Positions 1,205 to 55,895 of a stretch of DNA of 64,000 nt are shown here, one piece after another (the stretch's first letter is position 1; every line of letters starts with the position of its first letter). The DNA is from a virus, in the IMG/VR virus record IMGVR_UViG_3300009084_000003, positions 325 through 64,324 of that record; one strand, 5' to 3'. The translations under genes were made by a program, and so were the position numbers. The notes below the pieces were generated by a model. The model had not been told where the DNA came from, made no database searches, and saw only the letters and a program-made list of their open reading frames with translations.

Positions 1205-1217
1205 GACATACTATGTC
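1205..1217 (-). promoter_or_regulatory. GACATAGTATGTC palindromic promoter/operator, copy 1
   Basis: palindromic arms GACATA-N-TATGTC just upstream of the SD of 979..1188. Confidence 0.7.
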
Positions 1218-1510
1218 ATCGGAACTGTCCGGCGCAACACAAGTTCTACAGCGCAAGCGCCGGTTGCTGACCAGTCCTGATCGACTTCGGGCTGTTGGGA
1301 CTCCCCATCCACGAAGGTGTGAACCTGTAGATGTAGAACCCCTGGTGCGGTGGTGGGGAGAATCACCACAGTGATGCCTGTCTCGCTACACCCCAACGAG
1401 ATTGCTGGGGGCAGTTTGTCGGATTCGAGTGGAATGTCGATTTCCAACATCTGGCGAGTTTCGGCGACGCGGCCGTCGACGAACAGTTCAAGGTCACTCG
1501 AATGACTCAT
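1211..1510 (-). CDS. hypothetical protein
   Basis: MSHSSDLELFVDG...; start trimmed to limit overlap with the upstream gene. Confidence 0.6.
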   Translation of the reverse strand: MSHSSDLELFVDGRVAETRQMLEIDIPLESDKLPPAISLGCSETGITVVILPTTAPGVLHLQVHTFVDGESQQPEVDQDWSATGACAVELVLRRTVPMT

Positions 1511-2252
1511 CGCCAGGTCCAATGAAGAGCGCGTTGTTGCCAGGTTCGCGTAGGTTGCGGGGAGGCTGGCGGGCGAGGCTGGGAGGCTGGCGGGCGAGGC
1601 GGGTGATTTCATCGGCCGTGCGGAGGTCTCGCTCTCGGTCTGCGGTGAAGACCCGTGTCCAGTCGAACCGCTCGCGGACGGTTCTCGGTCGCAACGCCTC
1701 CGCCGCCGCCGCCCTCACCGCAGCCGCCCTCGCCGCCGCCGGGTATGGCGCGCCGCAGAAGCTGCATTCGGTGTGTTCGTCGCCGGCGGTGTCGGGGTGG
1801 ATGCTTTGGGCCGCCGAGTATTGAATGAACTCCGCGGTGTTGGTGATGTAGCGCTCGCCGGTATCGGGTTCTTCGTCTTCGAGGAAACTGAGCAGCGATG
1901 AGCGGCCGGGGATGGGGCGTGAGGAATCTCGGTTGGTGGTCATGGTGTTTGCTCGTGGTTGACCTGCCCGAACGTGCCCGAACGGGACGCCAGCATCAGG
2001 GTCGCGTAGGTTGCGCCCCGTCAGTGCCATGAGCCTGGCGACCGCCATAGCGAGATGAAAGTCTCTCTCCATCCCTGAGTAGCCCCTCGATAGCGGAACC
2101 GGGAGAGCACCAGGGTTGGCCGGGACGATTGCGCCCCAACGAGCCGACATCGTGTCCAGCACGATTCGGACAAGTTCGTTGTCGGTAAGCACCACCTCAA
2201 GCATGTGCTCAGGTTCCCCCACCGGGATGACTATTGTCTTTGACATTGGCAT
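1494..2252 (-). CDS. hypothetical protein (CxxC; 21-bp tandem repeat at 1560-1601 encodes LARQPPS/R x2)
   Basis: ORF with purine-rich upstream sequence. Confidence 0.6.
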   Translation of the reverse strand: MPMSKTIVIPVGEPEHMLEVVLTDNELVRIVLDTMSARWGAIVPANPGALPVPLSRGYSGMERDFHLAMAVARLMALTGRNLRDPDAGVPFGHVRAGQPRANTMTTNRDSSRPIPGRSSLLSFLEDEEPDTGERYITNTAEFIQYSAAQSIHPDTAGDEHTECSFCGAPYPAAARAAAVRAAAAEALRPRTVRERFDWTRVFTADRERDLRTADEITRLARQPPSLARQPPRNLREPGNNALFIGPGDESFE

Positions 2253-2270
2253 GTCTCTTTCCTGGGAGGA

Positions 2271-2301
2271 GGGCGGGCGGTGATGATCTCACCGCCCGCC
2301 C
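2271..2301. terminator. 13-bp perfect hairpin (terminator or processing stem)
   Basis: GGGCGGGCGGTGA-TGATC-TCACCGCCCGCCC; no U-tract. Confidence 0.6.
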
Positions 2302-2313
2302 GGTTACCGCTGG

Positions 2314-2634
2314 CTAGGCGGTGATGATCTCGACGGCTGCGGTGGTGCAGTCGACGAGAGCGAAGCCGCTCGGGAAGCGGCGCAGGTTGCGCCGGATGGC
2401 ACGAGCGCGGTCGGCGTAGCCGTCCACTCGGGTGCCGTCGAGGCGGTACACGACGTGCGGGTGCAGGATCGTGAAGGCGGCTGCCGTCGGGGCTGCCACA
2501 CTCCACACGTCGAGCGCGTCGCCGCCGAGGACGACCTCGCCGGAATCGGTCTCGACGACCGTGAAGGTCTCCGAGCTGAACATGACGGTCGCCGTGATGG
2601 TGCCGTCGGTGATGACAATGCCGTTCTCGAACAT
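2314..2634 (-). CDS. hypothetical protein
   Basis: SD AGAAGGAG before ATG 2634 (MFENG...). Confidence 0.7.
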   Translation of the reverse strand: MFENGIVITDGTITATVMFSSETFTVVETDSGEVVLGGDALDVWSVAAPTAAAFTILHPHVVYRLDGTRVDGYADRARAIRRNLRRFPSGFALVDCTTAAVEIITA

Positions 2635-2783
2635 GTCACTCCTTCTGTGTGCTGGCCTGACGCCGGAATTGGCATCAGGTGTTGCGCCTTTCGGCGGTGG
2701 GCCGCCGAGCGATGAAACTCGACGGCCCGCTCCTGATAAAGCTGGCGACACGGGAGGGTTCACCCCCGCCCGGCCAACACTTC
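2635..2783 (-). ncRNA. putative structured cis-regulatory RNA
   Basis: closing stem 2649-57/2772-80 plus four internal hairpins including a GAAA tetraloop. Confidence 0.45.
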
Positions 2784-5072: not shown

Positions 5073-5097
5073 GGTGGGTACCTTCCTTTCTTGTTCG

Positions 5098-18297: not shown

Positions 18298-18332
18298 TGC
18301 CGGGGCGTGGACTCGTCCCCCACGCCCCGGCA
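18298..18332 (+). terminator. 13-bp perfect hairpin
   Basis: TGCCGGGGCGTGG / CCACGCCCCGGCA. Confidence 0.65.
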
Positions 18333-18351
18333 CCCACCCGAAAGGAAGCCA

Positions 18352-18498
18352 GTGACCCGACCAAAGAACAGCGTGTGGTGGACCGTGCAGTGCTCTACTG
18401 AGGAGCGCGATGCCGTCGACGAGGCGGCCGAACAGGCGAGCATGAACCGCAACGCCTTCGTGCGGGCCTGGATCGCCTCCTTGATGGGCAAGAAGTGA
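18352..18498 (+). CDS. ribbon-helix-helix DNA-binding protein
   Basis: TVQCSTEERDAVDEAAEQASMNRNAFVR; SD AAGGAAG. Confidence 0.7.
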   Translation: MTRPKNSVWWTVQCSTEERDAVDEAAEQASMNRNAFVRAWIASLMGKK

Positions 18499-18740: not shown

Positions 18741-18949
18741 CGATGGTCAGCCAGCATGGCCTCGCCGCATACAACAAGGGGCATCGCTGCGACGACTGCA
18801 AGGCCGCCAAGCGCGCCAAGAGCGCGCTGCTCCGCTCGCGGCACTACATGCAGCGCGAGCGGGTCGAAGGCGACCACATGTGCGCTTTCTGTTGCTGCTG
18901 GTTCCACCCCAAAGGCATCAACCGGCACGAGCAGGCTTGCCAGGGGTAG
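18737..18949 (+). CDS. small Cys/His zinc-binding protein
   Basis: HGLAAYNKGHRCDDC...CAFC...HEQAC. Confidence 0.65.
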   Translation: MTMVSQHGLAAYNKGHRCDDCKAAKRAKSALLRSRHYMQRERVEGDHMCAFCCCWFHPKGINRHEQACQG

Positions 18950-18965
18950 ACCGACCGGCCAGCGT

Positions 18966-18978
18966 GACGTAGTATGTC
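18966..18978 (+). promoter_or_regulatory. GACGTAGTATGTC promoter/operator copy
   Basis: 3 nt before ATG 18982 (leaderless). Confidence 0.75.
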
Positions 18979-18981: not shown

Positions 18982-19134
18982 ATGGCTGCTGGTCGACCCG
19001 TTTCTTTCTGGCTCAGGAATGAAGACATTGACGCGCTCGACGCTGCGGCGGAGGAGCGGGGAGAGACGCGCTCCCAGCTCGTCGTGGGTCTCATTCGCGA
19101 CGAAGTGTCGCCCCCTGGGCCTGGCGCTCAATAA
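18982..19134 (+). CDS. 50-aa CopG-like ribbon-helix-helix regulator (not in ORF track)
   Basis: MAAGRPVSFWLRNEDIDALDAAAEERGETRSQLVVGLIRD... Confidence 0.75.
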   Translation: MAAGRPVSFWLRNEDIDALDAAAEERGETRSQLVVGLIRDEVSPPGPGAQ

Positions 19135-19357
19135 CTGCCTGTACCTCGGGCTGACAGATGAGCCAGCGCAGGGCCACGGAGCCCTTGCCGTCAGGGAACG
19201 ACTCGAAGAACGGCAACAGCGCCAGGTACTCGCTCGGGGGCAGCCTGAACGCCACCGTGTGTGTCAGTCGCTCTCCCGTAGCTGCGACATAGAACGTGTT
19301 GTCGTTCAGTTCGGCGACGGTGAATCCTGGTGGCACGGTGATCTTGACGGTGGTCAT
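19091..19357 (-). CDS. hypothetical protein with possible RHH-like C-terminus
   Basis: HTVAFRLPPSEYLALL...SVALRWLI; convergent overlap with 18982..19134. Confidence 0.5.
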   Translation of the reverse strand: MTTVKITVPPGFTVAELNDNTFYVAATGERLTHTVAFRLPPSEYLALLPFFESFPDGKGSVALRWLICQPEVQAVIERQAQGATLRRE

Positions 19358-19525: not shown

Positions 19526-20506
19526 GTGGCAAATCCAGCATTCATTCGTGACGGCGAAGACTGGGACGATGGTTGGTCCCGCGCCCCGCATGGCCTGTGG
19601 ACCCTCGACATCCCCAACGGGGCCAAAGTGCTACTCGGGTGGCTCCATTCGCACTCCGGCGCGTTCCTGAACGGCGTGACGGTGAACCAAGCACGCCGGG
19701 CTGTTGGGTCGTCCTCGATCAAGGTCTGGTTTGAGTCGCTAGAGGCTGCCGGGTTCATCGAGATCGCCCGCAAAGACAACGGCACGCAGTCTCAGTTCAC
19801 CCTCAAGATGGCCCCCTGGAAGGCCCTCATCGGCAGGCCGGACCGCGCCGAAATTAGCGCGGTAACCGCGCCGAAATCGGCGCGCACAGAAGAACACCTA
19901 GAAGATCACTGTTCTTCTTCACTTCGTTCAGAAGAAGAACTCAACGCGGAAAGTCGCGTAGATACTCAAGAGCGCATCACGCCAACGACGATCGCTCGGG
20001 AATACTGGGACTGGCACGTCGAGGATCGCGGCAAGCCACCCACCCAGACCTTCCTTGCCCTCCAGAGCATCGCGAAAGCACTCACGAAAGCTGGGTATCA
20101 ACCCGATGAGATCATTGACGCGATGAAGGTCGCCAAGGTGATGACCGCCAAAGCCCTCACTGACGTTGCGGCCGAGCAGAAGCACAAGCGCGACGACACG
20201 CCGAACACGCAGGCGATCCCAGCAGCGATCGTCAGGGCGTTCGCGAAGTGTGAGTCGTGGTTCGAGCGGAGGGACTTGATGACCGGGGCGTCGCGGACAC
20301 ACTGGATGCGCCTGTGTGCTTCGCAGGTGAACTTCGGCTACGGGCCGGGTGAGACCATGTTGCGCATGGCGGTCGCGCTTCGCACCGGCAACGCGACCAC
20401 CTTCGCTCTCAGTGATGCGAAGGTCGAGCGTTTCAACGGTGAACTCGCCGACTACCCCGACGCGATGGAACGGGCGTACGTCAACCAGGCTTGGAGCGCA
20501 CGATGA
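19526..20506 (+). CDS. phage replication initiator with N-terminal HTH
   Basis: GWSRAP..LW..DIPNGAKVLLGWL...LEAAGFIE; upstream of helicase. Confidence 0.65.
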   Translation: MANPAFIRDGEDWDDGWSRAPHGLWTLDIPNGAKVLLGWLHSHSGAFLNGVTVNQARRAVGSSSIKVWFESLEAAGFIEIARKDNGTQSQFTLKMAPWKALIGRPDRAEISAVTAPKSARTEEHLEDHCSSSLRSEEELNAESRVDTQERITPTTIAREYWDWHVEDRGKPPTQTFLALQSIAKALTKAGYQPDEIIDAMKVAKVMTAKALTDVAAEQKHKRDDTPNTQAIPAAIVRAFAKCESWFERRDLMTGASRTHWMRLCASQVNFGYGPGETMLRMAVALRTGNATTFALSDAKVERFNGELADYPDAMERAYVNQAWSAR

Positions 20507-22189: not shown

Positions 22190-22714
22190 TCAGGGGGCGG
22201 TCGCGCGTAGCAGCCACGCGCTGAGCGCCCGGCGCACCTCGGGGCTCAACTCTCGTGACGGGAACTGCATCAGCGCACCAGCCGAAACATCGGCTCGCCC
22301 AACGCGACCGTCACGAACAACACCCCGCCATTCCTGCGAGAACAACTTTGAGGCTTTGACCGTGGTGTCGGGGGAGAGCGCACCTGACGCAACGCCCGCC
22401 ATCAGCGCCTCGACGGGCAGTGTCTGGATGGCGTACAGCGCCTGCCACGGCTTCGGTAGCTGCGCTGCGATCTCCTCGGGCAGCTTCTCGTATGCGGCTG
22501 AAATGGCGATGAGTCGTCGGGCCGTCTCGTGGCCGAACGGCAGACATTCCCGAACCCACTCGTCGAACCCTTCTGGGTCGGCTTGCTTCGCTTCTCGCAA
22601 CAAGCGCCCGACACGCAGGGCTGTCCCGTTCAGAATCTCGAGGATTTCCTCACGGAGTCGACTCAGTGTCGACCAGGCGAGAGAGCTACTATGTCCCGAA
22701 TGAACGACCTGCAT
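22190..22714 (-). CDS. DUF3102-like protein
   Basis: LRVGRLLREAK...FDEWVRECLPFGHETARRLI. Confidence 0.6.
   Translation of the reverse strand: MQVVHSGHSSSLAWSTLSRLREEILEILNGTALRVGRLLREAKQADPEGFDEWVRECLPFGHETARRLIAISAAYEKLPEEIAAQLPKPWQALYAIQTLPVEALMAGVASGALSPDTTVKASKLFSQEWRGVVRDGRVGRADVSAGALMQFPSRELSPEVRRALSAWLLRATAP
22683..22695 (+). promoter_or_regulatory. degenerate copy of the promoter/operator motif (GAGCTACTATGTC)
   Basis: 4 nt before ATG 22700, first gene of the head operon. Confidence 0.55.
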
Positions 22715-23137
22715 GGGGTTGAAGGATACGAAGACTGTCGCCTTTGCGGGGCGATGGTCCTCACCCCCGTCGCTCACAGCACTGGGTATTTGTGCATGAA
22801 ATGCTTCAACGACGGGCTGGGTGAGGTGCGGTTCCTTGAGGTGATGCACCGCGGGTCGCGAGTGATGTTGCCAACCGGCGGACGCAAGCGGAAACGTCGC
22901 AAGAAGAACTCAGCAACCCAACGTCAAGCCGAGCACGCCCAGCGGTCTGCGTGGCGGCGTCTGGCGGCGATTCATCCCGAGTTGTACGAGATGCTGTACG
23001 ACGAGGAGCGCCACCTGCGTGGGCTCAACCCGGTCATTCGCCGCAACCGTCAGGACCGCGCCGTTGTCGCATCGGAGACTTTGGACTTCGAGAGCGTCTA
23101 CGATGCCTTGCGATCGTCAGGAGAATCAGATGCGTGA
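22700..23137 (+). CDS. hypothetical protein with CxxC pairs and a basic patch
   Basis: CRLC...CMKC, RKRKRRKK; precedes portal. Confidence 0.7.
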   Translation: MNDLHGVEGYEDCRLCGAMVLTPVAHSTGYLCMKCFNDGLGEVRFLEVMHRGSRVMLPTGGRKRKRRKKNSATQRQAEHAQRSAWRRLAAIHPELYEMLYDEERHLRGLNPVIRRNRQDRAVVASETLDFESVYDALRSSGESDA

Positions 23138-24662: not shown

Positions 24663-24674
24663 AAGGAGACCACA

Positions 24675-25943: not shown

Positions 25944-26019
25944 TCCGTCAGGTGTGGACTTACCGCCCGTCCGGCGGCAACACTGCGACTCACCACTGAT
26001 CTACCGGAGGTTGCCCGCT

Positions 26020-29553: not shown

Positions 29554-29716
29554 AGAACTACGCGATCTACTCAACAATGCCGTCACAGGACTCCCGCCCG
29601 GCGGGTACGTCTGCGGGTTCTCGGTCCGGGGAGCAACCTCCTCGCACTATCCGGCGGCCGCCACGGCGGCATGGACACCCCGCCTGAAATCTGACTGTTG
29701 CGCCGTCAGCCGTGAT

Positions 29717-29729
29717 GACATAGTATGTC
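29717..29729 (+). promoter_or_regulatory. GACATAGTATGTC promoter/operator copy
   Basis: 3 nt before ATG 29733. Confidence 0.75.
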
Positions 29730-29732: not shown

Positions 29733-30734
29733 ATGCCCAACTCGTCGACCGTCATCCAAATCGGTAATTTCCAGCCTGAACATTCGACAGAGAACCACCT
29801 ACGCAGGGCACTGATCGAAAACGGGCACGTCGTCATCCCGATGCAGGAGAACGACCCAGGCACCTTCCTGGCCATGAGCAACAGGCGCACCTGGCCGGGG
29901 AACCCCGACTTCATCTTGTGGACTCGCACCGGCTGGGACTGGAAGTCCATCTACAGGGATGGCGGCGAAGCCATCGCTCACGGCCTACAGCGGGCGATGC
30001 TCGGTCAGGCGAAGCTACTCACCGTGCCGACGGTCAGCTACCACCTCGACATCTGGTTCGGGCTCCCTCGCGTCCATCAGATCAGCGAGCCGTTCTTCGA
30101 GAGTGATCTCGTCATCACGGCCGACGGCGGCCACGATGAAGAGTTTGCCGGGCACGGCGTCAACCACGTCTGGTTCCCACCGGGCGTGTCGCGAGCCGAA
30201 TGCGAGGTGGGGACGTCCCGTGATGAGTACCACTCGAAGCTGGCTTTCGTCGGCTCCCATGACGGCAGCTACCACAAAGAGCATGAGCACCGTCACGAAC
30301 TGGTCGCCTGGTTGAAGAAGAACTTCCGACGCGACTGCTCCTTCTGGCCGCAGCCGGGCTGCCACGCGGTGCGCGGCCGAGACCTGCAAGACCTGTACGC
30401 CTCCGTCGACATCGTCATCGGCGACTCGTGTTTCGCAGGCACTGGCCTGCCCAATTACTGGAGTGACCGCGTGCCGGAAACGCTCGGTCGCGGTGGCCTT
30501 CTCCTTCACCCCGAGGTGCCCGGTCTAGTCGAAGCGTTTCATGGGTCGGTGATTACTTGGCCCGCCTTTGATTGGGAAGCGCTCGGCGCTCTCATCGAGA
30601 AACGCCTCGTCGACCGCTACGGCTACAACTCGGCAGCGACGTGGCGAGGGCGACTTGAAGTGCTTGAACATCACACCTACGAACGCCGCATGGAGCAACT
30701 CGTGGAGCTGCTCACAAGGTCGGCTTGGACGTGA
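29733..30734 (+). CDS. glycosyltransferase (GT-B, Glyco_trans_1_2-like)
   Basis: KLAFVGS, LQDLYASVDIVIGDS, YWSDRVPETLGRGGLLLHP, HTYERR. Confidence 0.85.
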   Translation: MPNSSTVIQIGNFQPEHSTENHLRRALIENGHVVIPMQENDPGTFLAMSNRRTWPGNPDFILWTRTGWDWKSIYRDGGEAIAHGLQRAMLGQAKLLTVPTVSYHLDIWFGLPRVHQISEPFFESDLVITADGGHDEEFAGHGVNHVWFPPGVSRAECEVGTSRDEYHSKLAFVGSHDGSYHKEHEHRHELVAWLKKNFRRDCSFWPQPGCHAVRGRDLQDLYASVDIVIGDSCFAGTGLPNYWSDRVPETLGRGGLLLHPEVPGLVEAFHGSVITWPAFDWEALGALIEKRLVDRYGYNSAATWRGRLEVLEHHTYERRMEQLVELLTRSAWT

Positions 30735-37973: not shown

Positions 37974-37998
37974 TGGTGCTAGCGCCAGAGCGCTCCGT

Positions 37999-38011
37999 GA
38001 CGTAGTATGTC
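37999..38011 (+). promoter_or_regulatory. GACGTAGTATGTC promoter/operator copy
   Basis: 4 nt before ATG 38016. Confidence 0.75.
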
Positions 38012-38015: not shown

Positions 38016-38384
38016 ATGGCATCACCGCAGAAGATTCTGGACCTCGACTCACAGCTCGGGTTCGACCTCACTCCCGCCCCCACCAAGACCGTGCGCCTCC
38101 TCGGGGCGGAGTGGACGATCGTGTGTGACATCAACTCGTTCGCCGTTTCCGACATTATGTCTGGCGATTCCGGCGGCATCGCTCGGTTCATCCGCGGGAT
38201 CATCGTCCCAGAGGAATCGGTCGCGTTCGCTGAGGCGCTCTCGAAAGTGCCGAACCTTGATGGTGAGAAGTTGGGCAAGTTGCTCGAAGCGCTGATCGAC
38301 GCTGCGAGCACGCCTGTTCCGCCAGCGCCCGTCCGGCGCACTCCCATCAGCCCAAAGCCTCCGCGCAAGACCGCGACGCGCTGA
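38016..38384 (+). CDS. tail assembly chaperone paralog (no downstream T segment)
   Basis: directly before tape measure; homologous to 49150..49524. Confidence 0.7.
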   Translation: MASPQKILDLDSQLGFDLTPAPTKTVRLLGAEWTIVCDINSFAVSDIMSGDSGGIARFIRGIIVPEESVAFAEALSKVPNLDGEKLGKLLEALIDAASTPVPPAPVRRTPISPKPPRKTATR

Positions 38385-38436: not shown

Positions 38437-41400
38437 GTGGCTGGGTTCACCGCAAATTCTGACGGCACTGTTTTCATCGGCGCTCAGCTCGACGCGGACT
38501 CAGTCGACGCCATCGCGAAGGTTATTGAGGCGGCCTGCTCTCGTGGCGTCACGCAGGGGTTCGCCGAATTCAAGAAGATTTTCAACAGTTCGGCTACCGC
38601 CGATGGAGTGAAGAAGATTCAAGACGCGGTGAACGCTGCTGGCAAGAGCGCCGTACAGGCTGGCAATGGGGCCAAGGTCTTCTCGAAGAATCTGAATGCC
38701 GCATCGCAGGAGGCGTACAATCTTGGCGACGCGCTTCAGCGGATCGGGCAGCTTGAAAAGGCGATCGCCGCCGCCCAATACCGCGCCCGCTCCACGGAGC
38801 GTCAGGGGGCCATCACTGATCGGGAGCGCTTCTCGCGTGACGCCCAGCTCCGCATCGAGACCCTGAAGGGCGAGAACTCCCGCGCCGCGTCGGGTGCCCA
38901 GGGTGCCGCCCAGCAGCAGGTGGTTGCAGCTCGGTACGCGGGCAAGCAGCGGGTACTGATCGTGCAGGAAGTCTTGCGCACTATTGGGCGGTTGGAGAAG
39001 GCGCTCGGGGCGACCATAGCTGGGATCGCCCGCACCGCGACCAGCGCGATCTCAAAGTCGTTCAGCGGGCTCACCTCAACCCTGAGCAAGTTTGGCAGCT
39101 CTCTGCGCCGTACCGACTCAGGGTTCAATCAGACGCTGCCTCGCGAGTTACGCACGCGCGAGACGTTGATCCGGTCGTCATTCTCGCGCCAGGAGAAGGA
39201 ACTCCGGTCGTCAACTATCCGTCAGCAGCGCATCATCCAGCAGGCGCGAGCTGCCTCGTCGACGGGTGTGCTCGGAGCGGTGAGCGGGCGGGGCGCTGGG
39301 GGCGGAATAGGTCTAGGAGGTCTCGCCGGTGGCGTTGGCATTGGGGCGTTGCTGACCTCTGGCTTCAGGCGCTTCTCTGATCTGGAGCGCATCAACAAGC
39401 AGTTCCTTGCCCTCACTGGCAACATCGACGACACCAACACCCTGCTCGCCCAGGTGAAGCAGTTTGCCAAAGAGACGCCCTTCGATCTCGTTGGTGTCGC
39501 TGATCTCGCCAAGGGCTTCCTCGCCATCAAGACCCCGGTCGATCAGGTTCTTCCTCGCGTCCAGGCCATCGCCGACGCCGTCGCCTTGACCGGCGGCGGG
39601 GTCGACTCACTCAACCGCATCCAGCGAGCGCTTGGCCAGATCGTCTCGACCGGCAGGTTGCAAGGCGACGAACTCAACCAGCTCGCCGAGAACCTGCCGG
39701 GCCTGAACATTCGTCAGATTCTCGCCGACCAGGTCACAGGCGGCGACGTCCAGGCGCTCGTGGCCTTGCAGGAGGCCGGGGAGCTGAGCGCTGACGCCGT
39801 CGTCAACGGGCTCATCACCGGCCTTGCCAGCGACCCCCGCTTGGCGGGGGCGAGCGCCGATCTGGCCAAGACCCTGGGCGGTCGAGTCGCCAACCTCAAG
39901 GAATCGTTCGACGATTTCGGCGCGGCCATCATCGGCACCATCGCAGGGCCACTGAAGGTCGCCGTCTTGGGCGCTCAGACCGTCTTGCAGAGTTTGGCTG
40001 ACTTTGTCAAGGGCGAGGCGCTCAGTGGTCCTCTCCTCATTCTCCGCGAGGCCCTCACCGGGGCGGCTGTCGCGCTCACGGCGGTCGTTGTGGCGAAGGG
40101 TGCGGTGGAGGTCTTCAAGCTGCTGGCCGTTTCCGCCCAGCTCCTCCTCTCGCCGATGGGCCTTCTGCTTGTCGGCGTGGCGACCGTGGGTGCAGCGTTC
40201 AACGTCCTGCGCACCCGCTCTGCCGACTTCCGCGAGGCCATCTCCCTTCTGGGGCGCTACCTCGTCACACAGGGCAGCCGCATCTGGGATGGCATCATCA
40301 CCGCCGTCCATACCGTCATCGACGCGTTCGCGCGGACCAAGGAGGCGGTTGGCGGCACAGCCGACCGCATAGAGCGAGAGGTCAAGCCTGCCTCTCGGTT
40401 CTTCCGCGACCTCGGCGACACCATCAAGCGTGCCCTGTTCACGGCCACCTCTTTCATCGTTGAGAAGGTGATCCCAGCCCTTGCCGAGTTCGCGATCTTC
40501 GTAGGCCGCAACTTCGTCCCAGCCGTCTCTGTCGCCGTTGGCGTGGTGTTGGGGCTCGTTGACCGGGTTGTCGATATTGCCAAAGGCATTTACACCTACG
40601 TTCGTCCGGGGCTCCAGACTGCCATCGACGGTTTCCACGAACTAGCGAACGCCATCGGTGCGGCATTCAGTGGTGATTTCTCGGGCCTTGAGAAGCAGAA
40701 GACGAAGCTACTCATCGCCCTCACCGCCGGGGTGACGGGCCTGGCGATCGGCGGCCCCATACTCGGGGCTGTGGCCGCCGCGGCGGTGCTGGTTGGCCCC
40801 GCCATCGGCAAGGCGCTCCAGCCGATCGGGCGGCGGGTTGCGGAGTTCTTCACTGAGCTGTTCTCCGGCCCGAACATCAAGCGGTACATCTCCGGTGTTC
40901 TCGACTTCGTGGAAGCGGTTGGCCGCACTATCGGCACAATCGTGTCCAGCCCGTTGTTCTTGAAGGCCGTCGCCGCCATCGCTGCCGCTGCCGTGGTGAT
41001 CGGCTTCCGCTTCGTCAAGGGCTTCATTGAGGGTGTCGCATCCAACCTCCCTTCCTTCGGCGACGTCCTTCAGGCTGGGCTGGGGCTCATCTTCGACAAC
41101 CTCGGGGTGGTCCTTGGGATCGCCCTCGCTGCGGCTATCTTCGGTCCACGCCTGCTGGGGCTGTTCCGTACTGGCGGGGCTACTGCGGGGACGTCGTTCG
41201 CATCGGGGCTGAAGGCGTCATTCGGCCGCGGTGGCGATTTCCTCAGCAGCCTGTTCGGTGGGGCTGGGGCCGCCGACCGACGGGCGATCGGCAACCTCTT
41301 CAGGGGGGCGGAGAGGGAGGCGCGAGGGTTGGCCAACCAACTCCGCGTTCTAGGGGAACCTCGCCAAGTATTCGGCAGCCCCACCTCCATGAGGGAGGCG

Positions 41401-44400
41401 ACCGATCGTATCCGCGAGCTGAGCACCGGGCTTACCGCCGCTCAGATAAACGGGCTTCGGCTGCGAGACACGTTGCAGCAGGGTGGCCTTGCCATCAGGG
41501 GCGTCTTCGGCGGGCTAGTCCAGGCCAGCAAGGGTCTCGGCCCCGCTTTGGCGGCACCAGTGAAGGGGTACATCGCAGCGCTCAATGCGACCAACGCCTA
41601 CATCGGCCCCGGCACGTCGGGGGGCAAGGCATTCGTGAAGGCTTTCGCCGAATCCTTCCGTGCTGGCGGCGGTGCGATCAAGGACGGGTTTCGGTCGGCG
41701 TTGTCGGCGGTTGAGCAGTTCTCTATTTCGCAGGGGAAGTCCATCGGCCGCACGTTGGTCAACGGGCTGCGGACAGGCGCTGAAGCGGGGCTGGCGGCAC
41801 TAGGTGGATTCATGGCTGGCCGCGCCGAGGGCGCGGCTGGCGGAAGTGGGCTACTAAGCGCCGCTACCGCCGGGCTGACGGCGGGCCTGATTACCCAGAA
41901 CCCAGTGATTGGCGTCGCCGCCGCGGGAGCCTCCCTGCTAGGCACCCAGCTCGGCAAGGCTGAACGGGCCGCGAAACTGTTCAAGGAGCGGTTGGCTGAA
42001 ATTGGGTCCGTCATTCGTGGCAAGTTGGAAGCGGCGCTCAAAGCGGGCAAAGATGCAGTACTTGACCTGCGCGACGCGTTCAGTCTGGAAGGGGAGGCTG
42101 GACTTACCGACGAGATCACTAAGCTGCTGAAGCCTGAGACGCTGAAGACCCTTCTGGACGCTGGGGTCAACAGTCGAGAGTTGTTCGCCGCTTTTCGTGA
42201 AGGCCAGCCAGCCGTGGAGCGTCTGCTCAGCTCAATCGGCGGGAGTAAGGGCTCTGGAGAGTTCGGCAAACTCACCGACATCCAAAAGGCTGCCTTTGAT
42301 GTCGGTACCGTGTTCGTGGGCGTGGCCAAGGAGATCGAGTCTGTCAACGTCAAGGCGCAGTTCGGTGCTGACGGGCCGATAAAGCGCTGGTCTGCTGCCG
42401 CCTTCCTCGCCCTCGGCGGGCCAGGCACCACCGACACCTTGGGCCGGATGAAAGATGCCATAGAGACTCTCGACCCGGCCTTTCAGAGGCATATCGACGA
42501 CACTAAGAGGTTGGCCGACGGGTACGACGGCGTCGCCGCTGCGGTCAAGGGAGCGCAAGACAACATCAACGCCGCGTTCGGCCCCAAGGGCGGGTCGCTT
42601 GGTTTGCAGATCGACACGGCAGTCGTTGGGGCGAAGAGTCAGGGCGCTCAACTCGCAGAAGCACTACGGTCGGGGGCTGGCAGCTCTGAGTTCAACCTGG
42701 CGCTGAACGACATCAGTAGCAGGATTGGGACAATTGTTTCGGAGGGCGTCGGGAGCGGGGCGATCCTAACCCCCGAGGCGGCGGCATTCGCTACCGACTC
42801 GTACAAGAGCGCGCTGTTGGCGGCAGTGAAAGACAACCCAGAAGCCACCGCCGCGATCCGCGCGTTGTTCGACAGCATCCCCGCGACAATCAAGCCCGAG
42901 TTGGACAAGGTCAAGCTGAAGAGGGACGCCCAGTCCGCCCTGGAAGGCGTCACCCTGTTCGGCGTTGGCAAGGGGAAGTTCAATCGGCCGATTGGCGATA
43001 TTGAGGCCCCCAAGGCCCCCAAGGTCGACATCCCTTCCTCCTCAAAGACGCAGGGTGAATGGTGGAGGTTTGGTTCCGACATCGCCACGGGGGCGGCGAG
43101 GGGCGTCACCGCCAACACCTACAAGCCGGTGACGGCAGCCGTGATTATGGCGTCGAAAATGGCCATCGCGGCGCGCAAACAGTCGGGCATCGCGTCGCCG
43201 TCGAAGGTGTTCAGGCAGATCGGCGTGTTCATGGGCGAGGGTCTCGCCGTCGGCCTCCAAAGCACGGCCGCCTTGGTGTCGGGCGCTGCCACTCGTCTCG
43301 TCGACCGCGTCGTCGCTGCGGCTCGCTCCGCTGGTTCTGGTGCGGCTGACGCGTTGAAGGGTGTCGGGTCGGACATCTTCGCTGGGATGGTTGGGTCGGG
43401 CGCTGAACTCAACACCGGCAACTCGTTGCTGCAAGCCCGCGGCGCGCTCACTACAGCATTCAGCAGCCTGCGCGACTCACTGTCGGGTGAGGGGGCGACG
43501 ACAACGCTGGACATCAACGACGCCCTCGGCGTGGCGAACATCCAACAGTTGACCGGCGCGTTCGACGCGATCGCTGAGTTCGGCCAGGTGATGCTTAGCC
43601 AGGGCGTCGACGCGTCAACGGTCGCCATCCAGCTCCAACAGCAGGTGGACGTACTCACCCAGCTTGCTGTGTCGATGGGTTTCGATCAGGCCGGTGTCGC
43701 GGGCCTGGCTGATTCGCTCGGCCTTTCGGGCGCTGCGCTCGGGCAGTTCGTCTCCACTGCCGCCGACGCCGCAGCGCAGATCAGGCAGATCGCCGCCGAC
43801 CTGGCAGCCACCGACTTGTATCAGAAGTCGTTCGGCTCTCAGGCGACCGGCCCCAACGGCAACGCAGGCGCTCTTGCTTCAGCGCAGGCCGGGGTGACGA
43901 CCGCCGTGCAGTCGGTGTTGTCCAACTTCGACACGCAGATCGGCCAAGTGTTCACACTCGGCGCGTCTGATTACTCGAAGCTGAACGCTGCCGATAAGGC
44001 ACTCTTCGATGAGATCAAGGCTGGCAAGGCGCTCTCAACTGACACGACGACGGTGCTCGGTTCGGCGAACCTGGCGTCGCTGACCGGCGCGTTCGACGCG
44101 ATCGCGAACCTCGGCCAAGTGATGATCAGCCAGGGTTCCTCTGCCGCTGACGTGGCGGCCGAACTGAAGAAGCAGACAGCGGCAGCTACAGCGAAGGCCA
44201 CTGCCCTCGGCTTCAGCGTCAGCACTGTTGCTGGTGTCGCTGCTGGGCTCGGACTGTCGAACGTGGCAATCGACGGCTACGTCACTGGTGCCGCTGCCGC
44301 TGCCGCTGCTGCCGCCGCTCCGGCCCCCGGCGCTGCCGCCGCCACGGCGGCCGTGTACGCACTGCCCCCAGCCGCCATTCCCGTGTACCGTCCGCCTGTC

Positions 44401-44631
44401 GCGCCTGCCGCCGCCGCTCCGTCCGGCCCGTTCACCCCGTCCACCGCCGCTGAAGACGCTGCGTCCGCGGCAGCGAACGCAGCCTTCGTCGCCCAGTTGA
44501 TCAACTCTGGGATGCTCACGACGAGCGGGGGCTCTGGCTTGTCGGGCGGCCCTGACCCGCAGGCGTTCATCAACGCTGTCGGCCCAGGGTTGGCTAAGGT
44601 GATTCAGCAAGCGATACGGGCAGGTGGGTGA
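38437..44631 (+). CDS. tape measure protein (2064 aa)
   Basis: size, Ala/Gly-rich, FAKETPFDL...GRLQGDELNQLAE tape-measure domain. Confidence 0.95.
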   Translation: MAGFTANSDGTVFIGAQLDADSVDAIAKVIEAACSRGVTQGFAEFKKIFNSSATADGVKKIQDAVNAAGKSAVQAGNGAKVFSKNLNAASQEAYNLGDALQRIGQLEKAIAAAQYRARSTERQGAITDRERFSRDAQLRIETLKGENSRAASGAQGAAQQQVVAARYAGKQRVLIVQEVLRTIGRLEKALGATIAGIARTATSAISKSFSGLTSTLSKFGSSLRRTDSGFNQTLPRELRTRETLIRSSFSRQEKELRSSTIRQQRIIQQARAASSTGVLGAVSGRGAGGGIGLGGLAGGVGIGALLTSGFRRFSDLERINKQFLALTGNIDDTNTLLAQVKQFAKETPFDLVGVADLAKGFLAIKTPVDQVLPRVQAIADAVALTGGGVDSLNRIQRALGQIVSTGRLQGDELNQLAENLPGLNIRQILADQVTGGDVQALVALQEAGELSADAVVNGLITGLASDPRLAGASADLAKTLGGRVANLKESFDDFGAAIIGTIAGPLKVAVLGAQTVLQSLADFVKGEALSGPLLILREALTGAAVALTAVVVAKGAVEVFKLLAVSAQLLLSPMGLLLVGVATVGAAFNVLRTRSADFREAISLLGRYLVTQGSRIWDGIITAVHTVIDAFARTKEAVGGTADRIEREVKPASRFFRDLGDTIKRALFTATSFIVEKVIPALAEFAIFVGRNFVPAVSVAVGVVLGLVDRVVDIAKGIYTYVRPGLQTAIDGFHELANAIGAAFSGDFSGLEKQKTKLLIALTAGVTGLAIGGPILGAVAAAAVLVGPAIGKALQPIGRRVAEFFTELFSGPNIKRYISGVLDFVEAVGRTIGTIVSSPLFLKAVAAIAAAAVVIGFRFVKGFIEGVASNLPSFGDVLQAGLGLIFDNLGVVLGIALAAAIFGPRLLGLFRTGGATAGTSFASGLKASFGRGGDFLSSLFGGAGAADRRAIGNLFRGAEREARGLANQLRVLGEPRQVFGSPTSMREATDRIRELSTGLTAAQINGLRLRDTLQQGGLAIRGVFGGLVQASKGLGPALAAPVKGYIAALNATNAYIGPGTSGGKAFVKAFAESFRAGGGAIKDGFRSALSAVEQFSISQGKSIGRTLVNGLRTGAEAGLAALGGFMAGRAEGAAGGSGLLSAATAGLTAGLITQNPVIGVAAAGASLLGTQLGKAERAAKLFKERLAEIGSVIRGKLEAALKAGKDAVLDLRDAFSLEGEAGLTDEITKLLKPETLKTLLDAGVNSRELFAAFREGQPAVERLLSSIGGSKGSGEFGKLTDIQKAAFDVGTVFVGVAKEIESVNVKAQFGADGPIKRWSAAAFLALGGPGTTDTLGRMKDAIETLDPAFQRHIDDTKRLADGYDGVAAAVKGAQDNINAAFGPKGGSLGLQIDTAVVGAKSQGAQLAEALRSGAGSSEFNLALNDISSRIGTIVSEGVGSGAILTPEAAAFATDSYKSALLAAVKDNPEATAAIRALFDSIPATIKPELDKVKLKRDAQSALEGVTLFGVGKGKFNRPIGDIEAPKAPKVDIPSSSKTQGEWWRFGSDIATGAARGVTANTYKPVTAAVIMASKMAIAARKQSGIASPSKVFRQIGVFMGEGLAVGLQSTAALVSGAATRLVDRVVAAARSAGSGAADALKGVGSDIFAGMVGSGAELNTGNSLLQARGALTTAFSSLRDSLSGEGATTTLDINDALGVANIQQLTGAFDAIAEFGQVMLSQGVDASTVAIQLQQQVDVLTQLAVSMGFDQAGVAGLADSLGLSGAALGQFVSTAADAAAQIRQIAADLAATDLYQKSFGSQATGPNGNAGALASAQAGVTTAVQSVLSNFDTQIGQVFTLGASDYSKLNAADKALFDEIKAGKALSTDTTTVLGSANLASLTGAFDAIANLGQVMISQGSSAADVAAELKKQTAAATAKATALGFSVSTVAGVAAGLGLSNVAIDGYVTGAAAAAAAAAAPAPGAAAATAAVYALPPAAIPVYRPPVAPAAAAPSGPFTPSTAAEDAASAAANAAFVAQLINSGMLTTSGGSGLSGGPDPQAFINAVGPGLAKVIQQAIRAGG

Positions 44632-48353: not shown

Positions 48354-48366
48354 GACATAATATGTC
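48354..48366 (+). promoter_or_regulatory. GACATAATATGTC promoter/operator copy
   Basis: immediately after the tail gene stop, upstream of 48410. Confidence 0.7.
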
Positions 48367-48409: not shown

Positions 48410-48784
48410 ATGAAACGCATTATTGCCCTGATTGTCGCAGCCATTGCGGCACTCACCCTCATTCCCGCCCCAGTCAGCGCCGGGTCGAATGTGGCCGAAA
48501 TCAACAACGTCGCCACATCGTGCGCCGCCCCCGACGGCACCTACACCGTCACCTGGCGGGCAGACATCTTCGCCCCGTCGAGGGTGCAGCGTGGCGTGAC
48601 GGCTTGGTCACTGACTGGCACGGCCGAAGTCTCGGTGGCATCGTCCATCTACGTCGTGACGACCCACAGTCGGATCACGCCCGGCTTCCCGGTCCGTGAG
48701 CCCCGCATCGCTATCCAGGCGCAGATCGGTTCTGCTCGTCCGATCTTGACCGACGACGCGAACATCCCGGCCTTCTGCCCCTGA
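48410..48784 (+). CDS. secreted protein with signal peptide
   Basis: SD AAAGGAG; MKRIIALIVAAIAALTLIPAPVSA. Confidence 0.75.
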   Translation: MKRIIALIVAAIAALTLIPAPVSAGSNVAEINNVATSCAAPDGTYTVTWRADIFAPSRVQRGVTAWSLTGTAEVSVASSIYVVTTHSRITPGFPVREPRIAIQAQIGSARPILTDDANIPAFCP

Positions 48785-48790: not shown

Positions 48791-49233
48791 CTAGGTAGTT
48801 GGGTGGTGCAAGCCCTGACGGCCTCCAACGCCAGGGCTTGCACCATCGTCGCGTTTGATGGGAGGGCGGGGCTTCCCGTTGGCGAGGAGCGCCTTCAGCT
48901 TTGACATTTCCTCAGTGGATGCCGTGGCTGTCGAGGGGGCAGTCGAGCCCCCAGCCTTGCGCTTGGGGGCTGTGTCGTCGTAGCGGTCCTTCACCTGCTT
49001 GATGGTCTCTGCCGAGTAGCCGAAGGCGACGTTCATCAAGTCGCGATACTCGAACGGGTTCATCATCGCGCCCGACACGCGCACCTTCAGAGCCCACACG
49101 CAGTCCAGGTACTCAGACAATGAGAGGTCGCGCAGGCGCAACCCAGAACCTAGGAGGAGTGTGCCGCTGATTTCTGCCCTGATGTCCGCTTGCTCACCGA
49201 CCGCGATGAGGTGGAGGGCAGTACGGTAGGGCG
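48791..49233 (-). CDS. tail assembly chaperone T segment reached by a predicted -1 frameshift
   Basis: -1 frame open from CGCCCTAC (49226-49233): PYRTALHLIAVGEQ...LRDLSLSEYLDCVW. Confidence 0.65.
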
Positions 49234-49524
49234 TTCCGACGCAACCTCCACAAGTGCGTTGACGAGTTTGCCCAGCCTGTCGGCGTCCATGTTCGGCTGT
49301 GCCGACAGGGCGCTTGCGAAGTCATCGCGTTGCGATGCCACTACGACGTTGCTGAGGAACCTGGCGACAGCGCCGTTGTCGCCAGCACCAATCGACGACA
49401 ACGTGAAGAAGTTGAGACCACACACCACGTCCCACTCGCGGCCGAATAGGGTGACAGGCTTGGTGAGGATGGGCTCTTCCTCGCCGAGAAGATCGTCAAG
49501 GTTGGTTCGTTTGGGGTTTGCCAT
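49150..49524 (-). CDS. tail assembly chaperone G
   Basis: paralog of 38016..38384; ends ERPT...SS, typical of frameshifting chaperones. Confidence 0.75.
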   Translation of the reverse strand: MANPKRTNLDDLLGEEEPILTKPVTLFGREWDVVCGLNFFTLSSIGAGDNGAVARFLSNVVVASQRDDFASALSAQPNMDADRLGKLVNALVEVASERPTVLPSTSSRSVSKRTSGQKSAAHSS

Positions 49525-49528: not shown

Positions 49529-49541
49529 GACATAGTAGGTC
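49529..49541 (-). promoter_or_regulatory. GACCTACTATGTC promoter/operator copy
   Basis: 4 nt before ATG 49524. Confidence 0.7.
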
Positions 49542-49604
49542 GGGGGGGCGTGCGATGCAAGGATGCGCGTGCTCGCCGCGCGCGGCGCAGCTATGGTTGC
49601 GGAT

Positions 49605-50387
49605 ATGACCGTCACTTTCTACGACTGGCAGGCCGGGCTCCAACCTGGGAAGCCGTACGACTACCTGTCGCCCAATCTGGTGGCCGTTCGTAATGAGCTG
49701 GCCGTGCGTTTCGGGGGAACGCCGCTCGGCGACTTTGTTGTCCGAGCGATCCGGGCCGGTTTCACATGGTCGAGCCATTCGTTCGGGTCTGCGATCAACT
49801 GGCGCATCGAAGACGCCAAGGCCCGCCGGGCGGCGATGGACTGGCTGATTGAGCATCATGTTCTGCTCGGCATCCAGGTCATCCACGACTATGTCGGCTG
49901 CCGCATCTGGCACGCCAACCGCTACCCCGGCAAGGACGCCCAGACGTGGTGGAGGCCGCAGCCCAAGAACCCGAGGAACGGGATGGGGCAGGCGTGGGCG
50001 AAGTACCTGCATATCGAAACCGACCGCAGCAACTGGTTGAACAGCACCCCGGTTTACATGCGCGGTCAGGTCGCCCCCGTCACCCCCCCGACGACCGTAT
50101 TGTTCGATCCGGCGAAAGGCATCTGGGGTTTGTACCCACTGGACAGGAACAAGAACACCATCCGCGAAGTGACGAGCGTCGCAGCCTCCGACAACGACCG
50201 GGCGTTGTGCAGGTACTTGCAGGGGGTGCTGCGCCTCAAGGCATCACAGGACGTCAAGGTCGACGGCGACTTCGGCCCGTCGACGGGCGATGCCGTTGAG
50301 CGTTTCCAGCGCTACTTGGGGTTGAAGCCCGACCGTGTCGTCGGCCCGGTCACCTGGGGCTGGATCGACCGGATGACGAGGGGCTGA
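49605..50387 (+). CDS. endolysin: M15-like peptidase domain plus peptidoglycan-binding domain
   Basis: SSHSFGSAIN, YLHIET; VDGDFGPST...FQ...LKPDRVVGPVTW; -10 TATGGT 7 nt before ATG. Confidence 0.8.
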   Translation: MTVTFYDWQAGLQPGKPYDYLSPNLVAVRNELAVRFGGTPLGDFVVRAIRAGFTWSSHSFGSAINWRIEDAKARRAAMDWLIEHHVLLGIQVIHDYVGCRIWHANRYPGKDAQTWWRPQPKNPRNGMGQAWAKYLHIETDRSNWLNSTPVYMRGQVAPVTPPTTVLFDPAKGIWGLYPLDRNKNTIREVTSVAASDNDRALCRYLQGVLRLKASQDVKVDGDFGPSTGDAVERFQRYLGLKPDRVVGPVTWGWIDRMTRG

Positions 50388-50388
50388 C

Positions 50389-51424: not shown

Positions 51425-51501
51425 CCCGCTCTGAGATCGCTTACATCATCGACGGTTGGTGGTACCGACTGTTTCGATCATCAACTGAAAGAGGTAACCC
51501 A

Positions 51502-53635: not shown

Positions 53636-53637
53636 CG

Positions 53638-54339: not shown

Positions 54340-54653
54340 TGAACACTGACGAACTACCGATCATCTCATACCCGAACGGCACGCGCCCGGTCATATCTAC
54401 GCCGTTTCTCAACGCTGCGAACGTCCCGGCTGGGCCGAGCGCCGTCACGGTGTCCACTCTGTCGCCCGCCGGGGTGCGAACCAACTACACGAGCCCGGAC
54501 GCCACCATCGCGCTCGGTACCACCGTCGTGTTTACGTTCCCGGCCCCGCTCACCGTGGCCGGTGACTGGATCGTTCGCGTGGTGGGCACCGCCGGGGTCC
54601 AGGCGGCAGCCTCTGACTTCTCGTTCAACATTGAAGCCACCCAGCTACCCTGA
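54339..54653 (+). CDS. small Ig-like virion protein
   Basis: beta-rich; AGDWIVRVVGTAG. Confidence 0.55.
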   Translation: MNTDELPIISYPNGTRPVISTPFLNAANVPAGPSAVTVSTLSPAGVRTNYTSPDATIALGTTVVFTFPAPLTVAGDWIVRVVGTAGVQAAASDFSFNIEATQLP

Positions 54654-54759
54654 TCTGATGGGCGTCTCTGTGAAATCTGACTGGTGGCCCCGAGTGGGGC
54701 GCTTGCGCCTCTTAGGTACCCGTTTGCATACCGCAAACAGGTGTGTCATGATGGGTGGC

Positions 54760-54933
54760 GTGACCACTTCCACTGATCGCTTTGCGCTTGTCCCTGCCGG
54801 GCAGCTCGACGACCTGTTGGAGCTGTCGCGCATGGCCGTGGACCGCCTCCCCGATACCGACCCGCTGACCTCCGCCCTTCGCGGTGCCGCGGCGCAGGTG
54901 CGTGCTGTCGCCGTCCTCGAGCCTGGCCGGTGA
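54760..54933 (+). CDS. hypothetical protein
   Basis: leaderless GTG after -10 CATGAT. Confidence 0.5.
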   Translation: MTTSTDRFALVPAGQLDDLLELSRMAVDRLPDTDPLTSALRGAAAQVRAVAVLEPGR

Positions 54934-55226
54934 ACCATTAGCTGCAACTGCGGCAGGCGAGCGACCAGGGTCGAGACGCTACGCACGGCGCGCTCCGTGC
55001 CTACTCGCAATGGGGGCTACCTTCTCGCCACGTTCCCAGACTGCCAAGAACTACACCTTGGGGCGTGGGAGGGGACGAGCGTTTACGTCGTGGGCCGCAA
55101 CACTGAGTTTGAGCGGCTGTTCAAGCGCACCGACCTGACTGAAGCCTCGGCGTACGCACGGGAAGTGAGGCAGACGATTGAGAACCTGCCGACCAGCGCA
55201 CTATGCCACCTCGCCGTGATCGCTGT

Positions 55227-55448
55227 TTACGGCTGACGCTCTGACATCAGGTGACTGATGAGGCCGAAGCCTTCAAGGCAATCCAGCATTCGGCCGAGCT
55301 GATCGTCGTCGAGGTCTTTCCATGAAGAGACGTCGCGCCGTAGCACCATTTGCGTCAGCGAGATGCGCTCCTCGCGGGCGAGTTGGTAGAGGTCGCAGTA
55401 GTGGTGCGCCTTCCTTAGTTTGACTGTCCTACTGGTCATGGGGTCCAC
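55227..55448 (-). CDS. hypothetical protein (weak Mu GemA-like pattern)
   Basis: RDVSSWKDLDDDQLGRMLDCLE. Confidence 0.5.
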   Translation of the reverse strand: MDPMTSRTVKLRKAHHYCDLYQLAREERISLTQMVLRRDVSSWKDLDDDQLGRMLDCLEGFGLISHLMSERQP

Positions 55449-55466
55449 GCTGCTATTCTACGCGCA

Positions 55467-55889
55467 ATGGCGAAGGAGCGGAATACCGAAGGCAACATCG
55501 ACGATCTCGGTGTTCTGATAACTGCGGCCATTGGCCTTGATCGGGAATGGATGGAGCAGGGGGCGTGCTACGGGTGGGGCTCGCAGCGTCCCGGCCAGCC
55601 GACCCCGTGGCAGGTTTCGCCGGGCCAAAACGTCAACGGCATCTCGGGCGCAGAGATGGCGCGGTATGCGCAGATGATCTGCTTCTCCTGCAAGGCACAG
55701 TACGACTGCCTGGAGTTCGCCATTGAGGGGAAGATGCTCGCCGGGACATGGGCGGTGCGAGCCAAGACGCTGTACTGGTTGCAGTCACAGGACGATGCGC
55801 TCGACCTCGTGGCGATGGCGCGCCGGAACAAAGTGCCAGTGCAGACCATCGCGTCGAGCGTCATGGCGGAGCGGCTCAACGCGACGTAG
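55467..55889 (+). CDS. WhiB-family Fe-S transcription regulator
   Basis: WMEQGAC...AQMICFSCKAQYDCLEFAI...GTW; four Cys. Confidence 0.85.
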   Translation: MAKERNTEGNIDDLGVLITAAIGLDREWMEQGACYGWGSQRPGQPTPWQVSPGQNVNGISGAEMARYAQMICFSCKAQYDCLEFAIEGKMLAGTWAVRAKTLYWLQSQDDALDLVAMARRNKVPVQTIASSVMAERLNAT

Positions 55890-55895
55890 TATGTC
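55883..55895 (+). promoter_or_regulatory. GACGTAGTATGTC promoter/operator copy
   Basis: 3 nt before ATG 55899. Confidence 0.75.

Follow-up and report, generated by a model that had tools for sequence, protein, structure and literature searches.

A 13-bp palindromic element, GACNTAVTATGTC, recurs eight times in a 64,000-nt stretch of phage DNA. From its sequence context it is very probably the core of a sigma-A-type promoter class that heads a conserved set of operons. That an operator for some phage factor is overlaid on this promoter is an evenly balanced proposition. The stretch, called the window below, comprises bases 325–64324 of a 67,272-bp IMG/VR virus record (IMGVR_UViG_3300009084_000003) rated complete by CheckV. 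Its G + C content is 63%. No additional copy occurs in the 3.3 kb of the record that the window leaves out. The phage under study is designated G000 in comparisons.

Seven sites match GACNTAVTATGTC exactly (1205, 18966, 29717, 37999, 48354, 49529 and 55883), and 100 dinucleotide shuffles contain 0 matches; comparison with shuffled sequence, proposed as a check in the original prediction, thus speaks for significance. The eighth copy, at 22683, is GAGCTACTATGTC, with one mismatch. Number, positions and the degenerate state of the copy at 22683 are as that prediction gave them. The copies at 1205 and 29717 are perfect palindromes, hence counted on both strands; all non-palindromic copies are oriented toward the adjoining gene. 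The central hexamer is TAGTAT, TACTAT or TAATAT in all eight copies, the same three forms that had been proposed as a −10 hexamer within the palindrome. In the alignment of the eight copies positions 1–13 are conserved and information content falls abruptly beyond both edges. Since the edges are sharp at positions 1 and 13, the copies are not what is left of longer duplications.

The sites and the genes directly behind them are the following (SD, Shine-Dalgarno sequence; RHH, ribbon-helix-helix; TAC, tail assembly chaperone-like).

1205..1217, minus strand: GACATAGTATGTC, perfect palindrome; 16-nt gap with SD AGGAAAGGAAG; −35 TTGCGC at 1232–1237 (minus), spacer 18 nt; heads a 69-aa open reading frame, 1188..979, function unassigned.
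18966..18978, plus strand: GACGTAGTATGTC; 3 nt to the ATG of RHH2 (18982..19134, plus), a 50-aa CopG/Arc-type RHH protein gene, first in its operon; −35-like TAGACC at 18947–18952.
22683..22695, plus strand: degenerate copy GAGCTACTATGTC; 4 nt to the ATG of a 145-aa CxxC protein gene, 22700..23137.
29717..29729, plus strand: GACATAGTATGTC, perfect palindrome; 3 nt to the ATG of a glycosyltransferase gene, 29733..30734; −35 TTGCGC at 29698–29703.
37999..38011, plus strand: GACGTAGTATGTC; 4 nt to the ATG of the TAC gene, 38016..38384; −35-like TAGCGC at 37980–37985.
48354..48366, plus strand: GACATAATATGTC; 43 nt to a signal-peptide protein gene, 48410..48784, with SD AAAGGAG.
49529..49541, minus strand: GACCTACTATGTC; 4 nt to the ATG of the chaperone paralog, 49524..49150; −35 TTGCAT at 49555–49560 (minus).
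55883..55895, plus strand: GACGTAGTATGTC; 3 nt to the ATG of p101, a 101-aa protein gene, 55899..56204.

Putative −35 elements (TTGCGC twice, TTGCAT, TAGCGC, TAGACC) lie 17–18 nt before the hexamer in five of the eight copies and are lacking in three. The pattern T[TA]G[CA]NN at 16–18 nt is present at 5/8 sites vs 3% background (binomial P 1.4e-6, with the pattern chosen post hoc). A second conserved block, T-n-G, appears at −35 distance in the aligned copies. The distance from motif end to ATG is 3 nt at 18966, 29717 and 55883 and 4 nt at 22683, 37999 and 49529(−); the 3–4 nt predicted for six copies are confirmed by these sequence contexts. The spacing from hexamer to ATG is 6–7 nt in these 6/8 copies and leaves no room for an SD; the expected transcription start therefore falls on the A of the ATG. 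By this geometry, six of the eight copies should give leaderless mRNAs. At 1205(−) and 48354, SD-bearing leaders of 16 nt and 43 nt separate the motif from the start codon. The earlier claim of promoters driving leaderless genes is supported by promoter geometry and by the recurrence of the same genes in relatives, and has to be narrowed for the two copies with leaders. An ATG inside the motif was considered as the true start and rejected; it shares the frame of the downstream ATG only at 4-nt gaps, not at 3-nt gaps.

The sites lie at operon heads. RHH2 is followed in the same operon by a 326-aa protein, an RF-1-domain protein and a DnaB-like helicase (replication module). Downstream of the 145-aa CxxC gene are genes for portal, a portal/protease-like (capsid-maturation) protein and major capsid protein. 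The copy at 29717 heads glycosyltransferase genes. The tape measure gene (38437..44631, 2064 aa) follows TAC, and p101 is followed by a membrane protein, TerS-like (56501..56935) and TerL (56932..58485). The chaperone paralog is divergent from an endolysin gene (49563..50387). The palindrome at 48354 also lies within the spacer of a promoter-like pair, TTGACG(48349)-18-TAGCAT(48378), found by an E. coli-type scan. The TAG of the −10 at 55883 is the stop codon of the WhiB gene. The targets named in the original prediction (RHH, head operon, glycosyltransferases, both chaperone paralogs, a secreted protein, terminase operon) are right; the 69-aa protein of 1205(−) was missing from that list. Timing of late genes by the motif is a hypothesis; the set also includes the RHH/helicase operon and so is not purely late.

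The RF-1/GGQ-domain protein of the RHH2 operon (130 aa, 20491–20883, PF00472, 54 bits) resembles a peptidyl-tRNA hydrolase or an ArfB-type ribosome rescue factor. The CxxC gene is divergent from a DUF3102-like gene (22714..22190, minus); their 5' ends share 15 nt, and both genes are kept in the relative G004. The degenerate copy at 22683 thus lies inside the minus-strand coding sequence of the DUF3102-like gene.

Relatives were found via the chaperone protein and its homologs: G001, G002, G003, G004, L023 and the 65-kb contig G006:C5. G001 is near-identical to G000; G004 is a 42-kb contig and incomplete. A search for related loci with TerL returned only the 4.3-kb fragment G005, and the same search with portal returned none. 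The sequences upstream of orthologous genes are as follows.

TAC, G000 (37999): GACGTAGTATGTC, gap 4, ATG.
TAC paralog, G000 (49529, minus): GACCTACTATGTC, gap 4, ATG.
TAC, L023: GACCTAGTATGTC, gap 5, ATG.
TAC, G003: GACCTACTATGTC, gap 4, GTG.
TAC, G004: GACCTAACATGTC, gap 4, ATG.
TAC, G002: GGCGTAGTATGCC, gap 3, ATG.
TAC, G006: TTCCTAATATGCC, gap 5, ATG.
p101, G000: GACGTAGTATGTC.
p101, G005: TGCATAGTATGTC.
p101, G003: CGCATAGTATGGA.
p101, G002: CGCGTAGTATGCA.
p101, G006: CGCCTAATATGCC.
RHH2 ortholog, G004: GGCATATCATGTC, 3 nt, ATG.
RHH2 ortholog, G006: TTCCTAATATGGG, 3 nt, ATG.

The TAC promoter keeps the 13-mer in G003, G004 and L023 at 40–52% protein identity, while the flanks diverge and the sequence further upstream is unalignable. 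TAnnAT is kept at all orthologous sites. The 65-kb contig G006:C5 has only three TAnTAT hexamers on both strands, all of them in CCTAATATG sites (G006 type, CCTAATATGCC), each with 3–5 nt between the site and the ATG of the ortholog of RHH2, TAC or p101. Judged on these upstream regions, a core set (RHH2, tail chaperone/tail operon, p101/terminase operon) keeps the promoter class at only 35–50% protein identity. The promoter reading is well supported because the same class precedes the same three genes in relatives so distant. Database homologs of the chaperone (P0002–P0008) and of RHH2 (P0009) have N-termini MSGM, MSVM, MSRM or MCVM from gene callers. Such mis-called N-termini would result from an upstream ATGTC or ATGTG, four nucleotides and ATG; this hints that more relatives probably share the arrangement.

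Counted by strand, G000 has 16 TAnTAT hexamers vs ~29 expected, and 12 of the 16 are motif sites. Counts in relatives are 2 vs 9.5, 2 vs 13.8 and 3 vs 14.2 expected. The hexamer is two- to seven-fold depleted vs shuffles in G000, G002, G003, G004 and G006:C5, and the survivors are mostly promoters. Such strong depletion would be expected of a hexamer that the host reads as a strong signal, and it suggests purging of spurious strong −10 elements. A promoter/terminator scan of E. coli type found no terminator enrichment.

Promoters of similar geometry without the arms of the palindrome are present in the same genome: TTGCGT-17-TATGGT-6-ATG precedes the RHH3-like gene at 19357(−), and other TAnnnT-N6-ATG arrangements exist. 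Bare TAnnnT elements stand 6–8 nt before the starts at 34893 (adaptor-like), 36839 ('MIPAAPC...' gene), 38437 (tape measure) and 56501 (TerS-like). They are kept in five or six diverged genomes (orthologs in G002, G003, G004, L023 and G006), with variable inner bases, and are either very common internal leaderless promoters or, in part, no more than an upstream TAG stop codon. The WhiB gene (ATG at 55467) stands back to back with a 73-aa minus-strand gene (GTG at 55448), at a distance of 18 nt; between 55446 and 55469 a single TATTCTA could be the −10 for both strands (TAGAAT-6-GTG, TATTCT-7-ATG).

Further matches to the motif were rejected as members of the set. The 2-mismatch matches at 17679(−), 19286(−) and 24619(−) are intragenic, with no start codon after them. 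The orphan near-palindrome TACATAGTATGGA (46919–46931) lies inside a 678-aa tail gene, with no gene start. It recurs in G001, and each of its strands has a TAnTAT core; it may be an antisense promoter or due to chance. A degenerate arm pattern, counted across the whole metagenome-assembled genome (MAG) holding G006, gave matches equal to control.

Several features of the palindrome speak for an operator overlaid on the promoter. In G000, five of the six position pairs (1/13, 2/12, 3/11, 5/9, 6/8) never vary and are complementary, so that the GAC/GTC arms and the inner TA/TA form a 6-1-6 dyad. T8/A9, which sigma-A does not require, mirror T5/A6. Arms that are mutually reverse-complementary have a probability of 1/64 by chance. 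The bases before the hexamer are ACN, neither the SRN nor the TGN extension of mycobacterial promoters (PMC3898074), and the arms mismatch known actinobacterial extended −10 and discriminator preferences. At the ten positions that are not fixed by sigma-A, sites share 7.9 within a genome, 6.6 between orthologous promoters of different genomes and 5.6 in unrelated pairs. The within-genome likeness is reached by 0/5000 permutations (P<0.0002), a value that is only indicative because the sites are not phylogenetically independent. Both G002 sites are GCGTAGTATGC, a symmetric A2>G / T12>C change. Reading the arms as an NrdR or BldD site, an extended −10 or a discriminator was rejected, since spacing or bases misfit.

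The best-placed candidate for a reader of the dyad is RHH2. On its own, RHH2 is sub-threshold for Pfam RHH_1 (E 0.054); a profile search gives 61 relatives, and 19/35 aligned ones match RHH_1. The family alignment consists of a beta-strand, helix A, a G-x-[ST]-R-[ST] turn and helix B. The AlphaFold2 model has a predicted local distance difference test (pLDDT) score of 88.8 and beta-alpha-alpha topology, and its top PDB folds are all RHH proteins (VapB, Arc, CopA, CopG, Mnt, NikR; template modelling score 0.7–0.78). By the modelled fold RHH2 is a true ribbon-helix-helix protein. Neither RHH2 nor RHH3 has a match among PDB sequences, and similarity to Arc or CopG is not detectable by that search. 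The RHH2 gene stands behind an armed promoter in all three genomes where it was found (G000, G004, G006), with a clear dyad in G000 and a weak one in G006. By analogy, this layout is classic for an RHH repressor under autoregulation. The 10-bp distance between the arms of the dyad would accommodate two dimers of an RHH protein or one helix-turn-helix (HTH) dimer. RHH2 is tentatively considered as the motif-binding factor, with doubt prevailing.

The favoured explanation combines these parts and, as a whole, is credited about as much as it is doubted. Host sigma-A RNA polymerase would use the 13-mer, with TA[G/C/A]TAT as −10 and a TTGCGC-like −35 located 17–18 nt upstream. In 6/8 copies the first transcribed base would be the A of the ATG, 6–7 nt past the hexamer, and the mRNA would be leaderless. 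The operons so headed would be RHH/replication, head, glycosylation, tail, tail-chaperone-b, secreted-protein, p69 and terminase. Bound to the arms, a dimeric DNA-binding protein of the phage would cover the −10 and turn off all copies at once. The preferred binder is RHH2, itself the first product of one such promoter; the result would be negative autoregulation together with a common set-point, or a shut-off, of the virion operons, not a delay. If so, virion, terminase and replication operons would stand on constitutive host-type leaderless promoters, the only control being an autoregulated RHH protein that reads the −10 dyad. Late output would arise by titration of the RHH protein against rising genome copies, with no transcription cascade, and promoter and RHH protein would form a co-evolving private code between sister phages (GAC/GTC, GC/GC, CC...G). 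This extended picture is regarded as improbable.

Several results weigh against the favoured explanation. A strict E. coli-consensus promoter scan calls none of the eight sites, because TTGCGC shares only three positions with TTGACA. The left arm is lost at the p101 promoter of G005 (TGC), both arms are lost at that of G003 (CGC...GGA), and the dyad of G006 is limited to C3/G11. The dyad is imperfect at the point where a T is needed by the −10, position 4 being A in only 3/8 copies. Arm pairs GAC-N7-GTC that lack the core occur at chance level (36 vs 36.2 expected). The RHH2 link rests on three genomes. RHH2, if made from a promoter that it represses itself, cannot alone delay late genes. The earlier proposal of an operator on the −10 thus keeps the dyad, the sharp edges, the homogenisation, the symmetric G002 change and the RHH gene behind such a promoter on its side, with the arm losses in G005 and G003, the lack of a full dyad in G006 and the unenriched arm-only sites on the other.

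The same arm losses would fit a promoter and nothing more, the promoter staying in G003, G005 and G006 where arms are lost or asymmetric. The 13-mer would then be the strongest host-type promoter of the lineage, its arms kept by descent of the copies or by tuning to RNA polymerase or a host factor, with no phage binder. Promoter geometry in all copies, a family-wide invariance limited to C(−14), TA..AT and G(−6), and the depletion of TAnTAT elsewhere, which marks the hexamer itself as the strong signal, are consistent with this. However, eight copies that share exactly 13 bp and nothing beyond are unlike leftovers of recent duplication, and homogenisation across non-homologous promoters together with the symmetric change in G002 needs a genome-specific reader. 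This simpler reading is possible and is given a clear minority of the weight.

An operator read by another phage protein is also conceivable. The proteins concerned are the following.

18307..18498, plus strand: RHH1, 63-aa NikA/RHH-like protein (E 9.5e-5), in the upstream operon.
19091..19357, minus strand: RHH3-like gene, RHH-like only by eye, with no Pfam match; armless promoter in G000.
55467..55889, plus strand: WhiB-like gene, 140 aa, 23.7 bits vs a cut-off of 23.6.
59297..59536, minus strand: LexA DNA-binding domain protein, 79 aa, 63.6 bits, without peptidase domain.

A winged-HTH (wHTH) protein of LexA type, RHH1, RHH3 or the C-terminal domain of the WhiB-like protein would be made from an armless promoter and would impose an early-to-late delay or prophage-type silencing. 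Candidates of this kind would fit a timing switch better than the autoregulated RHH2, and all four genes are present. The LexA-like recognition helix is SPASTNANL in G000 and SPSGANGML in G003 vs TPSSALRFV in G002, where the arms differ, a comparison of n=3. The G004 contig, which has armed sites, contains no LexA-like gene, although it is incomplete. GAC-N7-GTC is loosely like GAAC-N4-GTTC boxes, and the actinobacterial LexA/SOS box has the consensus TCGAAC-N4-GTTCGA. The motif is GAC-N7-GTC with a TAnTAT core; half-site and spacing differ, and an SOS box was rejected. The WhiB-like gene is directly upstream of p101 in four genomes (G000, G002, G003, G005), but Wbl proteins act through sigma-A region 4 near the −35, not at the −10. 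The assignments of RHH1 and RHH3 are sub-threshold or made by eye. Binding by one of these proteins is unlikely on balance. Among the regulators named in the original prediction (RHH, WhiB, LexA-like domain), RHH is the best placed, the LexA-like wHTH is possible, and the WhiB gene is real and is not expected to read a palindrome at the −10.

The WhiB-like protein has a C-terminal extension of ~50 aa that is HTH-like by eye. RHH2 (+) and the RHH3-like gene (−) are convergent, with a 44-nt overlap (19091–19134). The G004 homolog of the RHH3-like gene carries the armed motif GACCTAACATGTC; in that contig RHH2 and the RHH3-like gene both have armed promoters, facing each other, and look like a convergent two-regulator switch.

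A palindrome that serves mainly another DNA transaction (methylation or restriction avoidance, recombination, replication or packaging) and stands at gene starts incidentally is very improbable. The site is palindromic and a DNA methyltransferase-like protein is encoded at 59835–60614, but the distance of 3–4 nt to start codons is fixed, orientation follows the genes, the −35 lies at 17–18 nt, and the TAnnnT core is kept in all relatives while the arms vary, with the sites at operon heads.

The source is probably an uncultivated phage of Actinomycetota, because the capsid protein is like those of actinophages (only ~25% identity to Gordonia, Arthrobacter and Microbacterium phages), a WhiB gene is present and a related contig is found in an Ilumatobacteraceae MAG. 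Megablast of 20 kb of the window gave no match to GenBank phages. The contig in question, L032 (DAORTY010000080.1), is a weak host hint. A second related contig, L033 (CAZHNI010000005.1; 68% G + C, WhiB-type family), is in a 'Gammaproteobacteria' MAG and is probably mis-binned. No integrase, sigma factor or phage RNA polymerase is present among the genes scanned. The terminase operon (56932–58485) is ~33 kb from the portal/capsid operon (23019–27723), with lysis and tail genes in between, a module order unusual for a siphovirus-like genome.

A description of the motif GACNTAVTATGTC was not found in the literature searched. The sites offer a ready transcription map, with eight operon starts, mostly leaderless by prediction, for a lineage without a cultured or annotated close relative. 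The 13-bp site and the 50-aa RHH protein are a compact candidate promoter-operator pair and a possible small regulatory part for actinobacterial genetics. The comparison of genomes displays the drift of a phage-private cis code, in which the same three genes keep the promoter class and the flanking bases change in concert per genome.

The layout resembles P22 Arc/Mnt and plasmid CopG in that an RHH protein of ~50 aa lies directly behind a promoter with a short dyad, its arms one helical turn apart. P22 immI has arc and mnt as a pair of facing RHH-like genes, as are RHH2 and the RHH3-like gene here. Unlike these local switches, the phage sites are distributed among eight operons, some of them for virion genes, with RHH2 binding putative; the putative operator would also coincide with the −10 and with leaderless starts. 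Early promoters of phiC31 have conserved inverted repeats, and phage BPs has a 12-bp palindromic operator, CGACATATGTCG. The phage under study shares with this type one promoter sequence for many operons and a palindrome, here a putative site for a phage repressor. The sequence is different, however, the palindrome is centred on the −10, and structural operons are among the genes controlled.

In the transcription start site (TSS) map of M. tuberculosis, TANNNT is centred 7–12 bp before the TSS, a strong −35 is absent and 26% of genes are leaderless (PMC3898074). Its leaderless sigma-A promoters are alike in having TANNNT a few nucleotides before an ATG or GTG that is the TSS, and a weak or variable −35 (PMC3898074); leaderless starts are typical of small regulators and of RHH genes of toxin-antitoxin type. 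In contrast, the phage reuses one near-identical 13-mer with dyad arms eight times in 67 kb. Stoperators of cluster A phages (L5 gp71 type) are likewise 13-bp phage-specific sites found throughout the genome; they follow the direction of transcription and differ from one related phage to another in step with the regulator (PMC9283540). More than 20 in number and without symmetry, they mostly occupy intergenic gaps and not a −10, block elongation and bind a monomeric two-domain HTH repressor (PMC9283540). The site in the phage under study is a dyad in eight copies, each a predicted promoter, and for these reasons falls outside the stoperator definition, as judged by site features only, with no gp71-homolog search made. 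Both RHH autoregulators and phage promoters that recur with an operator built in are well known, so that no new kind of mechanism is opened here; the system would be a phage circuit of a familiar kind with a new sequence.

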